Source: an uncultured delta proteobacterium
Lineage (GTDB): Bacteria > Desulfobacterota > BSN033 > UBA1163
Reading direction: 5' to 3'
DNA length: 64,000 nt
NCBI GenBank assembly: GCA_963827685.1
Contig: CAWHBU010000005.1
Coordinates: 96,001 to 160,000 of the forward strand
The notes under the pieces are model-generated. The model saw nothing but the letters and a program-made list of their open reading frames with translations, ran no database searches and was not told the DNA's origin. The translations under genes and the position numbers were made by a program. Position 1 is the first letter of the stretch, and each line of letters opens with the position of its first letter. Shown here one piece after another: positions 53,651-56,777 of the stretch.

Positions 53651-53850
53651 AAGCTCCAAGGCTCAAGCACCTGCCTTCGCCGAAGCGCCTGCCCTCCGCA
53701 AGGCTTCTGGAGGCGGGGCTTCGCGCAGGCAGGCCAAATCACAAATAAATTCCAATATCCAAAATTCAAAATTTCAAACAAAATCGTTTTGGTATTTCGA
53801 AATTGTAATTTGGAACTTGTTTGGCATTTGGAATTTGTAATTTGGAATTT
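53651..53850. repeat. TTGGAAT-type heptamer inverted array interrupted by a nested CCTGC..GCAGG element (53670-53733)
   Basis: Removing the insert restores aagcaccaaatcacaaataaattccaa. Confidence 0.75.
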
Positions 53851-53889: not shown

Positions 53890-54891
53890 TCAATTTTTTG
53901 ATGGTAACGGTGCCAGATGGATCCGTCCGTCGGCTGGCATCCCGGGCTTGAGTTCATGATCCTTATTGGAAATATCCACCTTAATCCGGTAGACCAGGGT
54001 CACCCTCTCCTTTTCCGTCTGAATCTGTTTAGGTGTGAATTCGGCCTGGGAGGAGATGAAAGAAATTTTCCCTTTGTATTCCTTTTTCGGCCGAAGGTCA
54101 GTGGTCACAATCACCTCCTGGCCCCATTTCACCTGACTGAGGTCCGTCTCCGGGATATATGCCTTCAACCAAACATTTTCGATATCGGCCATGGTGAGAA
54201 TGGATGTCCCTGGATTGACGACCTCACCGATTTCTCCAGATTTCACCAGGACGACTCCGGATATGGGAGAATAGAGAGTGGTGTAGCTGAGCTGTGTCTC
54301 ATTCAGTTTCACAGAGGCCCGGCCTTGATCCACTTGAGCTCTCGCATCTTCAATATCCTCTTTCCTCGGCCCCTCCTTCACCAGAAGGTAGTTCTCCGTA
54401 GCCTTTTGAAAAGTGGCCTTGGCGATCTTAAATGCAGCCTCGGCATTGTCCGACGTCTCTTTAGGAACAACCCGCTTCTCGAAGAGGGACTTCATCCTTT
54501 CGTATTGGGTCTCCTTGTTCTCTAGATCGAACTTAGCCTGGTTGAGTTCGGCCTCCGCCTGTCTTATTTCTTCCGGTCTTGACCCCGCAAGCAGTTTGCT
54601 CAATCGAGCTTGCGCCGACATCAACGCGGCCCGTGCCACGTCAAGACGGTTGCGGAGATCTTCATCATCCAATTTGGCCAGAACTTTTCCTTGATCTGCC
54701 CAATCTCCCTCCTCAAAAGAACGACTGACAATCCTTCCAGAGACTTTAAACCCCACATCTACTTCTGTAGCCTCTATGTTTCCAGAAACCTTGATGAAAG
54801 TCCCCTCCGCCTCTTTTTCTCTTGTGAAGAAATAATAGAGAAGACCTCCTATAGCAACAGCCATGATAACAATCAGCAAGATCCGTTTCAT
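53890..54891 (-). CDS. HlyD-family membrane fusion protein (YbhG-like)
   Basis: N-terminal TM, VSGNIEA, coiled coil, AEFTPKQIQT, LKPGMPAD. Confidence 0.9.
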   Translation of the reverse strand: MKRILLIVIMAVAIGGLLYYFFTREKEAEGTFIKVSGNIEATEVDVGFKVSGRIVSRSFEEGDWADQGKVLAKLDDEDLRNRLDVARAALMSAQARLSKLLAGSRPEEIRQAEAELNQAKFDLENKETQYERMKSLFEKRVVPKETSDNAEAAFKIAKATFQKATENYLLVKEGPRKEDIEDARAQVDQGRASVKLNETQLSYTTLYSPISGVVLVKSGEIGEVVNPGTSILTMADIENVWLKAYIPETDLSQVKWGQEVIVTTDLRPKKEYKGKISFISSQAEFTPKQIQTEKERVTLVYRIKVDISNKDHELKPGMPADGRIHLAPLPSKN

Positions 54892-54967
54892 CTTCCAACC
54901 TATCCTAAGTCTTAAGGCACATCATTATAAATTCTATTATGATCACTGTCAAAACTTTTCCCCTCTT

Positions 54968-55170
54968 CCCTTCTCCCCCTGGGGGAGAGGGGAAGTCGCC
55001 GACGCGCCATAGCCTGCCTTTGCCAAAACGCTCTCGCCTGCCGGAGAAATTGCCTGCCTGCGCGAAGCCCCGCCTGCCAAAGCCTTGTGCGGCGGGCAGG
55101 CGCTTCGGCGAAGGCAGGTTCGGCGAGCAGGTCGTGCAGGCATGCTGCTCTGGCAACGGCGCGGGTGAGG
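54968..55170. repeat. Multi-level nested palindromic mini-elements inside a hairpin repeat
   Basis: Four nested CCTG/CCCG...CAGG units at 55013-55144, 55037-55131, 55053-55118 and 55069-55100. Confidence 0.7.
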
Positions 55171-55185
55171 CGTAAGAGAACCCTC

Positions 55186-56615
55186 TGTAATCCCAAAATG
55201 ATAATGTCCTAATTGACCAATTTAGAAATGTCCTCTTTTCGACATGCTAAGATGCCCTTTTTCAGAGGAGGGCATGATGGCAGGAGAGGACATGATCATG
55301 GTACGTCAGGGAGAGTTAAAGCGGTTACATGTCATCCAGAAGGTCCTGGAGAGGGTCATCAAGCGGGTAGAGGCAGCAGAGATTCTTTCCTTGAGTGGTA
55401 GGCAAATTCGGAGGATCGTGAAGCGGATCAGGAATGAAGGGAACAGGGGAGTCATACACAAATCGAGAGGGAGGCCATCAAACCGGAGGATACCCTATAA
55501 GATTAAGGACAGGGTGATCCGACTTTACCGGGCACAGTACAAGGGTTTTGGGCCGACCCTGGCCTCGGAGAAGCTTCTGGAAAGGGGTAGGATAGAGATC
55601 AGTGATGAGACCTTACGGAGGTGGCTCATCGAGGCGGGGGATTGGAAGAAGAGCCGCAAGAGAGGGAGGCATCGTCAGTGGAGGGAGCGGAAGCATCATT
55701 ACGGCGAGATGGTACAGATGGACGGGTCCCATCACGCTTGGTTTGAGGACAGAGGTGGCCCCTGTGTTCTGATGAGCTATATTGACGATGCTACCGGGGA
55801 AGCCTTTGGGAGGTTCTATGAGTATGAGGGGACGATCCCGGCGATGGATAGCTTCAAGCGTTATATCAAGAAAAACGGTTTACCGATGAAGGTGTATTTG
55901 GATAAGCATTCGACCTATAAGTCGACGGCCAAGCCAACGATCGAGGACGAGTTAAATGACGTGGGGCCGTTAAGTGAGTTTGAGAGGGCCTTAAAAGAGT
56001 TGGGGGTAGAGGTCAGTCATGCCCATTCGCCGCAGGCCAAGGGGCGGATTGAACGACTCTTTCGGACCCTTCAGGACAGGCTGGTCAAGGAGATGCGTTT
56101 AAGAGGGATCAGGACGATTGAGGAAGGCAATCAGTTCTTAGAGGAATATCTTCCTCTCTATAACAAGAGGTTCTCTGTTTGGCCCCAGGAGAAAGACGAT
56201 TTCCACAGGCCCTTACCTAAGGGGGTGGATCTGGATGCGATCTTATGCATTAAGACAGAGCGAGCACTGAGAAATGACTTTACGGTGGCTCATAACAGGA
56301 AGCTCTATCAGGTTGAGGATACGATCAAGGCCTCCAAGGTGATGGTTCAGGATCGAATCGACGGATCAATGGTCATGACCCATAAAGGTCGAGCTTTGAG
56401 ATTTAAAGAGATCACTGAGAGACCACTAAGAGAGAAGAAACAGCCGGCTATTGTGAGAAGGAGGAAGACTTACATTCCTCCGGCTGATCATCCTTGGAGG
56501 AAGTTCAAGATTAGGAAACATCCCTATAACAGAGAAAAACTCTTAGAATCTCAAATCTGAAGAATAGGACATTTCTATTTTGGTAAGAAGAGGACATTTC
56601 TATTTTGGCTTGACA
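55186..56615 (+). mobile_element. IS1202-family (ISNCY-type) insertion sequence, 1430 bp, with a 17-bp target duplication
   Basis: TGT...ACA ends, repeated AATGTCCT/AGGACATT subterminal motifs, DR GGCGTAAGAGAACCCTC at 55169-55185 and 56616-56632. Confidence 0.9.
55274..56560 (+). CDS. ISNCY/IS1202-family DDE transposase
   Basis: GEMVQMDGS.H.W, IDDAT, YLDKHS, SPQAKGRIERLF.TLQDRL, C-terminal DHPWR. Confidence 0.92.
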   Translation: MMAGEDMIMVRQGELKRLHVIQKVLERVIKRVEAAEILSLSGRQIRRIVKRIRNEGNRGVIHKSRGRPSNRRIPYKIKDRVIRLYRAQYKGFGPTLASEKLLERGRIEISDETLRRWLIEAGDWKKSRKRGRHRQWRERKHHYGEMVQMDGSHHAWFEDRGGPCVLMSYIDDATGEAFGRFYEYEGTIPAMDSFKRYIKKNGLPMKVYLDKHSTYKSTAKPTIEDELNDVGPLSEFERALKELGVEVSHAHSPQAKGRIERLFRTLQDRLVKEMRLRGIRTIEEGNQFLEEYLPLYNKRFSVWPQEKDDFHRPLPKGVDLDAILCIKTERALRNDFTVAHNRKLYQVEDTIKASKVMVQDRIDGSMVMTHKGRALRFKEITERPLREKKQPAIVRRRKTYIPPADHPWRKFKIRKHPYNREKLLESQI

Positions 56616-56632
56616 GGCGTAAGAGAACCCTC

Positions 56633-56661
56633 TTGAATTTTCTTATAGTTACGAGTAAGAT
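56633..56661 (+). promoter_or_regulatory. sigma70-type promoter of rel
   Basis: TTGAAT, 17-nt spacer, TAAGAT. Confidence 0.55.
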
Positions 56662-56667
56662 GGGTTT

Positions 56668-56777
56668 GTGAAGCCCTCCGGCCAGAGGCCGGGGCTTCCC
56701 GGGAAAGGAATACTGTTTTGATTGTGCCCCTTGACCCCAACCTAGAAGGCGGGGCTTGCGGGGCACTTGCCGGCCAA
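56668..56777. repeat. GC-rich structured element between the rel promoter and its start codon
   Basis: GAAGCCC.CCGGCC-AGA-GGCCGG-GGCTTC hairpin plus a GTGCCCC...GGGGCAC stem. Confidence 0.55.

Follow-up and report, generated by a model that had tools for sequence, protein, structure and literature searches.

Short hairpin repeats nested in one another and inserted into other hairpin repeats of an uncultured deltaproteobacterium

How REP-like repeats spread is unsettled, and we know of no enzyme that has been tied to the smallest 'mobile' repeats. The SDR4-6 repeats of Nostocaceae, reportedly described by Elhai et al. in 2008 (Genome Res 18:1484), are said to be hairpin-like sequences of 21-27 nt that are nested and apparently mobile and for which there is no mobilising enzyme. 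They have been cited as possibly mobile repeats of about 20 bp (PMC3116915, PMC2884548). For REPs themselves, movement through single-strand processing by an HUH/Y1 enzyme has been proposed (PMC3116915, PMC6006769), and the tagged REP superfamilies carry a conserved 5' GT[AG]G or CGTC at the foot of the hairpin (PMC6006769, PMC3733652). Palindromes as REP insertion targets are already in print (PMC3733652), and RAYT subclass 2.1 is entered in Table 1 of PMC6006769 as 'REP-less', prevalent in delta-proteobacteria and with no substrate or REP known.

At 55013-55144 of the window analysed here (the whole stretch of 64,000 nt), four short hairpin repeats lie one inside the other: A2 contains B, B contains an inverted A and A contains B' (Table 1; positions elsewhere in this genome, G000, carry contig handles such as C2). 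This four-deep nest, which an earlier note had read from the letters of the window, is real; it was recovered by parsing the sequence and by an automatic peel, which with a library of six units rebuilds H1+[A2+[B+[A-[Bp+]]]] on its own. The layer coordinates given previously were generally correct, except that B starts at 55033 and not at 55037, which is its internal CCTGCC; the final T of the left half of A2 can be assigned to A2 or to B. B' sits at the same internal position of A as the insert at 53688 in the second A copy of the window, as had been claimed. The nest had also been placed within a further palindrome inside a C-rich/G-rich host hairpin, next to an IS1202 target site. The palindrome exists (H1, 54998-55164), but it is not in the loop of that hairpin: it lies just 3' of the G-rich arm of the D hairpin, with only TC between them, and within the longer consensus of the D hairpin family. 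An IS does adjoin the nest and is assigned here to the ISNCY family, under which ISfinder places IS1202.

Table 1 Features of the nest and its surroundings, in window coordinates.
Feature	Coordinates	Strand	Basis or remarks
Second A copy of the window, with a B'-type insert at the same central position	53670-53733	+	CCAAAT-rich host repeat
D-type host hairpin: C-rich arm, 1-nt loop, G-rich arm	54958-54995	.	inverted repeats
H1 palindrome, left part (GCCGACGCGCCATAG)	54998-55012	+	nine copies in the genome, three of them empty; peel depth 5
A2 (33-nt subfamily), left half	55013-55032	+	3 mismatches to an intact A2 copy
B (33 nt), left half	55033-55052	+	alone at C2:1233462; B>A at 3 other places
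A (34 nt), inverted; the + strand shows the complement of the right half	55053-55068	-	0 mismatches once B' is removed
B' (32 nt), innermost	55069-55100	+	letter-identical copies at C5:208169 and in G005, G008 and G010
A, inverted, other half	55101-55118	-	sequence and peel
B, right half	55119-55131	+	sequence and peel
A2, right half	55132-55144	+	sequence and peel
H1, right part	55145-55164	+	34/35 identical to the empty H1 at C3:563741
ISNCY-family IS, outside the nest	55187-56614	+	NF033594, 405 bits

The IS, with a transposase of 438 aa, is bounded by an 18-19-bp direct repeat (55168-55186 and 56615-56633) and splits the intergenic region 4-5 nt past the end of H1, at a point that is uninterrupted in relatives. 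Further copies of the end of this element occur elsewhere in the genome. The 5' neighbour of the region 54955-55190 is an HlyD-type adaptor gene (53890-54891, minus strand); the gene on the other side, as found in relatives, reads as relA/spoT from its translated start. Between a conserved leader and the start of this putative relA/spoT gene, positions 56664-56776 of the window hold an inserted run of small hairpin repeats from the CCGGGAAGCCCCGG... and X families, about 110 nt in all; it is missing in most relatives and present in a shorter version in G012. The 226-nt nest region folds at -66.6 kcal/mol (z = -4.5), a stability equalled by none of 200 shuffles, and its predicted shape is a single rod beside the D hairpin.

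The units of the nest recur throughout the genome. A (CCTGCCTTCGCCGAAGCGGCTTCGCGCAGGCAGG, 34 nt) is found in 57 copies at up to 3 mismatches, against none for a reversed control, and its 12-nt left end occurs 65 times; this count, together with the fold that no shuffle equalled, excludes chance. A2 is a 33-nt subfamily with 8 intact copies, and B (33 nt) and B' (32 nt), two variants of one family, look like A read as its reverse complement. E (CCTGCCTACCGGCAGGCAGG, 20 nt) is the most frequent related unit: 90 copies were counted when up to 2 mismatches were allowed, and the scan of the genome totalled 90 E, 59 A and 8 A2. Ends of the CCTGCC...GGCAGG type are common to E, A/A2 and B/B', and all units are imperfect palindromes with a conserved mismatch in the stem, which in E falls at position 8, as an A-C mismatch on one strand and a G-T mismatch on the other. 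The layout of E is 7-6-7, and A can be read as 13-8-13. At the nest site and in the rpsP-ffh spacers, the unit copies examined are intergenic. We lean slightly towards taking E, A/A2 and B/B' as one superfamily of miniature, gene-less, hairpin-shaped mobile elements, a preference that covers this grouping, the RAYT-like Y1 mechanism and the history of the locus jointly.

A ladder of nesting states is preserved in this genome. H1 is empty in three copies (C2:1002371, C3:634271, C3:563741), holds A2 in one (C4:657688) and A2 with B inside in four (C4:478856, C3:155780, C4:721569, C6:339147); the full nest is found only at the window locus. The genome-wide iterative removal of units that the earlier note had proposed yielded nesting ranks for 181 units: 169 at depth 1, 8 at depth 2, 2 at depth 3 and one each at depths 4 and 5, the last at the window locus, as counted with six typed units and Hamming matching only, a strict matcher that missed 3 of the 4 H1>A2>B copies. 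The three further B>A places represent two host types, and one of these hosts also occurs with B alone; besides its solitary copy in this genome, B stands alone at an orthologous site in G007. The reciprocal arrangement, A>B, is found at C6:514222. B' is present in 15 copies in 6 of 15 genus genomes, 14 of them inside A and the remaining one in the loop of a REP-like hairpin in G006. A>B' constitutes a 66-nt composite, with at least 10 different hosts across 6 species. Since the inner units occur on their own (A alone 57 times, and B and B' alone as well) and intermediate states exist, the finding that the earlier note had itself set against its reading, inner units never independent and no intermediates, was not made.

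The outer layers are more changed than the inner ones, as had been noted (A2 3, B 5 and A 0 mismatches). The peel counted 3 in H1, 3 in A2, 5 in B and none in A or B'; B lacks a firm consensus, so its 'decay' of 4-5 changes is relative to single reference copies only. This gradient (A2 3, B 4-5, A 0, B' 0) fits the order of events proposed here. The nest had been understood as an ordered record of successive insertions, but four insertions on the spot are not required, because H1>A2>B and A>B' both exist ready-made elsewhere. The most economical history, given that the outer three and the inner two layers are each available as composites, is the succession D, H1>A2>B, A>B', IS, and the nest was therefore probably formed in about three events from pre-nested composites, with A>B' moving as a 66-nt unit. 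A D hairpin would have been present to begin with, as it is in G009 and G006; H1>A2>B would then have come into its 3' arm as a composite, A>B', likewise already assembled, would have entered the loop of B, and the ISNCY element would have landed beside the nest.

The same composites could be read without any transposition of single units, as the outcome of copying between paralogous composites by gene conversion, recombination or hairpin template switching, with the nest imported as blocks. The three outer layers are ready-made with conserved flanks in four other places, all nine H1 copies follow a D-type G-rich arm, the two inner layers form a composite found elsewhere, and many D-hosted A copies share long flanks and are therefore copies of one larger repeat. 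Such conversion requires flanking homology, which is absent where E has 42 different flank sets, where inserts of exactly 20 nt stand in unrelated loops, where orthologous sites differ by just one E or B, and where A>B' occupies 10 or more unrelated hosts. We consider block copying improbable as a general account, although conversion from a paralogous D-H1 repeat could also have supplied the outer layers. The preferred reading remains the insertion of units, single or already nested.

Comparison of filled and empty sites defined how the units enter their hosts. The loops of the GTAG REPs, a family that also flanks a RAYT-like gene, are 5 nt long in 29 empty copies and 25 nt long in 5 filled ones (ATA+E+AA or GTA+E+AA), and one more copy has a truncated E in the loop. 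In the X family the empty junction reads TTA (14), TCA (13), GCA (2) or TAA (1), and the filled one TC+E+A (7 identical copies and 3 variants). The entry point of A in B is CTTG^TTCGG and that of B' in A is GAAGCG^GCTTCG, each with an existing paralogous empty form. No target duplication was found at any filled/empty pair examined. These pairs show that the units insert precisely, without target duplication, at unpaired positions of other hairpin-forming repeats. The nesting had been attributed to a system that recognises its own products; this is not borne out, as the same units are also lodged at unpaired sites in hairpin repeats of other, unrelated kinds (GTAG REP loops, the X family, D hairpins and heptamer arrays), and the nesting of units in each other is a special case of hairpin-repeat targeting. 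Each new unit supplies a new apical loop, and so units land in one another, A in B and B in A; since it is the outer ends alone that count, nested composites are copied whole.

The flanks of the units are variable and biased. The 50 exact asymmetric E copies represent 42 different flank sets and the 32 exact A copies 25. Read in the asymmetric 'top' orientation, the base before E is C in 37 of the 42 sets and never G, while the base after it is C in 32 and G in 2. E copies on viral contigs are followed by C in all 14 cases and preceded by C in 7 and A in 7. A has C before it in 18 of 25 flank sets and after it in 19 of 25, and the A>B' composite shows the mirror image of this bias, on the other strand. 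A perfect flank stem of at least 6 bp spans the unit in 24% of A and 17% of E, compared with 1.8% of shifted control junctions, so that about three quarters of the units do not lie across such a stem; the other sites are inter-helix junctions or heptamer arrays. The common denominator is therefore structured, hairpin-prone DNA and not always an apical loop. (An MFE-based classifier for junctions in apical loops missed junctions at stem edges and was set aside.) A positional polarity within loops stands out only among the A copies hosted by D, and these are not independent; for E, 10 copies point one way and 7 the opposite way, with 2 ties. Orientation of the units relative to GC skew showed no association, in a comparison of low power (A, odds ratio 1.7, p = 0.42; E, odds ratio 0.7, p = 0.50).

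Related genomes provide orthologous sites at which the units are absent. The comparison of the locus that had been called for found the nest site without the nest in relatives: among nine genus relatives, three have no hairpin there (G003, G011, G002), two have D only (G009, G006) and four have D with inserts, which sit at the D apex, are quite different from the nest and include a GTAG REPIN. In a wider set, which partly overlaps in species with these nine relatives, 18 of 48 related loci have both anchors; 7 of them are empty, with 38-56 nt between the anchors, 2 have D only and 9 have other inserts. In G004 and G012 (loci L015, L016, L021 and L024) the D apex holds a palindrome that itself contains a GTAG REP doublet (a REPIN), and this apex insert is an independent nest made from other elements. 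RAYT-type repeats thus use the same kind of target.

The rpsP-ffh spacer measures 104 nt in G008, 123 nt in G001, where it contains a 19-nt variant of E, and 137 nt in G007, where it contains the 33-nt B, each unit having entered at an ATG^CGC step. A second spacer holds E in G003 and the uninterrupted host in G002. These filled and empty pairs at orthologous spacers show that E and B move as single units. Across 14 genus genomes (L087-L100), all three spacers of the rpsP-ffh region are almost wholly different, at 11-334 nt, and composed of different small repeats; the genes there are 80-93% identical. Assembled (Logan) contigs of sequencing runs contain 'skips' of 66-133 nt with short sides of 20-46 nt, which match paralogous H1, H1>A2>B or A copies of the same genome, or other organisms. 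In run X2, one loose end passes directly from 55014 to the right part of H1; this is an H1-empty form, which may stem from another locus. Among these assembled contigs, no unit was caught directly during insertion or excision.

A (at up to 3 mismatches) is present in all 14 genus genomes searched, with 3-26 copies each, in the one sister-genus genome (1 copy) and in none of 15 other genomes searched. E is more widespread: it was found in 43 of 54 family genomes, with 1-81 copies, and in none of 13 genomes of two sister families. Across a phylum sample of 301 genomes, E is multicopy only in its own family and has 1-2 copies in 10 of 291 others; it also occurs in 55 stretches of IMG/VR contigs, with up to 6 per contig. 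The gene neighbouring the nest is 74-90% identical within the genus, and letter-perfect units beside such a gene indicate that the units are being renewed or selected.

If selected, the units might be cis-elements such as protein-binding sites, terminators or supercoiling sites, with nesting as an incidental matter. The exact conservation of a 20-mer and a 34-mer across genera and species and their extragenic placement beside divergent promoters agree with this, as do the functions in termination and mRNA stability that have been published for REPs (PMC6006769). It would leave the precise insertion into other repeats unexplained, and it sits poorly with presence and absence that vary at orthologous sites of close species, with copy numbers of 0-81 within one family and with units on viral contigs; Rfam returned no relevant family, the two hits being eukaryotic with E = 0.7-0.8. 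We therefore regard a purely cis-acting role as very unlikely, though function and mobility can coexist.

For units that are mobile, the absence of duplication, the one-strand polarity, the irregular hairpins, the single-stranded targets and the composites defined by their outer ends together fit single-strand processing of the HUH/Y1 kind. From this we infer RAYT-like Y1 trans-mobilisation of single-stranded hairpins as the likeliest mechanism. The units may move as single-stranded hairpins that are cut and rejoined in trans, and the candidate actor would be a RAYT-type (TnpA-REP) tyrosine enzyme of the HUH/Y1 class, in line with the proposal made for REP/REPIN. To our knowledge, no substrate as small as a single 20-nt hairpin has been shown to be moved by a Y1 enzyme.

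Of the 25 Y1_Tnp matches in the genome, 18 are identical IS200 copies, 3 are further IS200 copies and four are RAYT-like genes (157, 174, 283 and 330 aa); three of these four RAYT-like proteins were scanned and all three passed the cut-off of NF047646, the NCBIfam model of REP-associated tyrosine transposases. The correlation of unit abundance with candidate enzymes that had been suggested was found, without singling out an enzyme: over 55 family genomes the copy number of E and the number of RAYT-like matches have a Spearman coefficient of 0.51, uncorrected for phylogeny or genome size. Among the 11 genomes free of E the median number of RAYT-like matches is 1, and among the 37 with at least five E it is 5; only 1 of these 37 E-rich genomes is without a RAYT-like match, a genome that is 83% complete. 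No A, A2 or E lies within 5 kb of the four RAYT-like genes, the nearest being at 5.4-19.8 kb. Two of the genes have flanking repeats of their own (G000:C6:427900-429000 and G000:C4:98000-99400): GTAG REPs (GTAGCGTCGGCATTTA...) stand on both sides of the 174-aa gene, and the 283-aa gene is flanked by GGGTCAGGTC repeats. Inverted GGGGTCAGGTCTTTTAT repeats, related to a 25-copy family, were also seen at the 283-aa gene. The two long RAYT-like proteins carry the NHYH, FQ and Y[IV]xLNP motifs of RAYT subclass 2.1, and, as far as sequence motifs go, these may point to the mobiliser, as a lead and not a finding.

Several other sources were considered and rejected. Orthologues of the 157-aa RAYT with more than 70% identity occur in only 4 other family genomes. 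IS200 has end hairpins (CCGCCCAGC.../GCCCCGCAGC...) that are unrelated to the units, and it inserts at diverse sites; of 55 family genomes, only 13 gave an IS200-type TnpA, which was not found in 27 of the 37 E-rich ones. The distribution of E follows neither the 157-aa RAYT nor this TnpA. The one RT gene of the genome, as a retron-like source, has no unit within about 3 kb. The 18 unit pairs spaced 250-3000 nt apart enclose ordinary genes, and a gene-carrying, full-length A element was not found in the genome, where paired halves are 0-33 nt apart. As a separate observation, 8 of the 18 identical 545-bp IS200-type elements have an A, A2 or E within 1.7 kb, compared with about 2 expected at the density of the units.

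The distance between the RAYT-like genes and the nearest units, together with the lack of a GTAG foot, leaves some room for a different, unrecognised mover, either a structure-specific nuclease or a recombinase. Candidates would be the small Vsr-fold DUF559 and the PD-(D/E)xK nucleases found within cassettes of hairpin repeats, or a tyrosine recombinase with a 7-6-7 core site, for which the layout of E and the 13-8-13 reading of A offer a pattern. The DUF559 gene at C7:124532-124849 is flanked by D-type hairpins, which are hosts of units, and the PDDEXK_3 gene at C1:21551-21895 is followed by ATCTGTGTAATC repeats, which are also E hosts. However, neither gene has A or E within 3 kb, and the repeats beside them are hosts and not CCTGCC units. 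A site-specific recombinase acting on a core site would leave two sites around the insert and not one split unit, and the copy number of E correlates with RAYT-like matches. We thus hold another enzyme to be unlikely, and RAYT-like mobilisation remains the preferred mechanism. The 140-codon DUF559 gene (G000:C7:124200-125200) is framed by CCCTCTCCC TTGAT GGGAGAGGG hairpins and variants of them, with a small insert in one downstream hairpin, and a second DUF559 fragment (C3:786163-786387) is also framed by C-rich/G-rich hairpins; the PDDEXK_3 (PF13366) gene has 124 codons and is located in a ribosomal-protein region.

A bolder proposal, which we put forward only tentatively, is that E, A and B represent a new class of mobile hairpins, untagged and self-nesting, letter-perfect across the family and present on viral contigs, and moved by RAYT subclass 2.1 or by an enzyme family not yet linked to transposition. 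E, at 20 nt, would then be about the smallest mobile DNA unit described, and the order of a nest could be read as molecular stratigraphy. This lineage offers an unusually clean natural experiment, with three related unit types, exact boundaries, a complete nesting ladder in a single genome, filled and empty states of orthologous sites across 15 species of the genus, and family genomes with 0-81 copies. Given such clean variation in units, sites and copy number, both the target rule (unpaired hairpin spots, a C-biased flank, no duplication) and the search for the enzyme are directly testable. The intergenic spacers of the lineage are rebuilt by layered mini-insertions, which is relevant to the reading of promoters and to genome assembly.

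In their behaviour the units work like REPs and like the SDRs reportedly described by Elhai et al., yet they fall outside the tagged REPs, REPtrons, REPINs, MITEs and IS200 derivatives. With SDR4-6, as these are reported, they share the form of very small, nested, apparently mobile hairpins; they differ in phylum (here Thermodesulfobacteriota) and in sequence, and here the full ladder and orthologous empty sites are available. The unit sequences have no match in the literature searched, and the portions of the REP, REPIN, SDR and Syntrophaceae literature available to us contain no description of these units in this lineage; likewise, reciprocal recursive nesting with a full ladder was not found in the REP, REPIN and SDR texts searched.

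The general make-up of REPs, imperfect palindromes of about 20-65 nt in many extragenic copies, is that of the units. Like the REPs, REPINs and BIMEs that accompany RAYTs (PMC3116915, PMC6006769 and PMC3733652), they are short imperfect palindromes, there 20-40 nt long, that cause no target duplication, are extragenic, lineage-specific, vertically persistent and of high copy number, and share their genomes with RAYT-like genes. Unlike those systems, they have no GT[AG]G/CGTC foot but start with CCTGCC, with C or A as the flanking base, and a separate, genuine GTAG REP family is present in the same genome. A REPtron is a tnpA-REP flanked by cognate REPs within about 1 kb, whereas the RAYT-like genes here have no adjacent unit, the distance being several kilobases; a REPIN consists of two inverted REPs and a spacer, folding together into a long hairpin, whereas the units, the smallest of 20 nt, are single (most by far at depth 1) or nested apex in apex and do not form side-by-side inverted doublets. 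MITEs combine TIRs with a target-site duplication over about 70-300 bp, whereas the units are 20-34 nt without duplication, and no gene-carrying partner with their ends was found in this genome. With the 'peel and paste' elements of the IS200/IS605 group (PMC6006769) they share irregular hairpin ends, the absence of target duplication and a flanking-base polarity. In those elements the two end hairpins differ from each other, and there are guide tetranucleotides and a fixed target tetranucleotide, whereas each unit is one hairpin, unrelated to the IS200 ends of this genome, with flanks that are variable apart from the C bias. A parallel for the targets is provided by the REPs in palindromic targets of Di Nocera et al. 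(PMC3733652), where small palindromic repeats also regularly stand in the middle of palindromes and, in T. roseum, free copies of the target are likewise present. There, one repeat type has one dedicated target, whereas here several unit types use many targets, reciprocally and recursively, to a depth of five.
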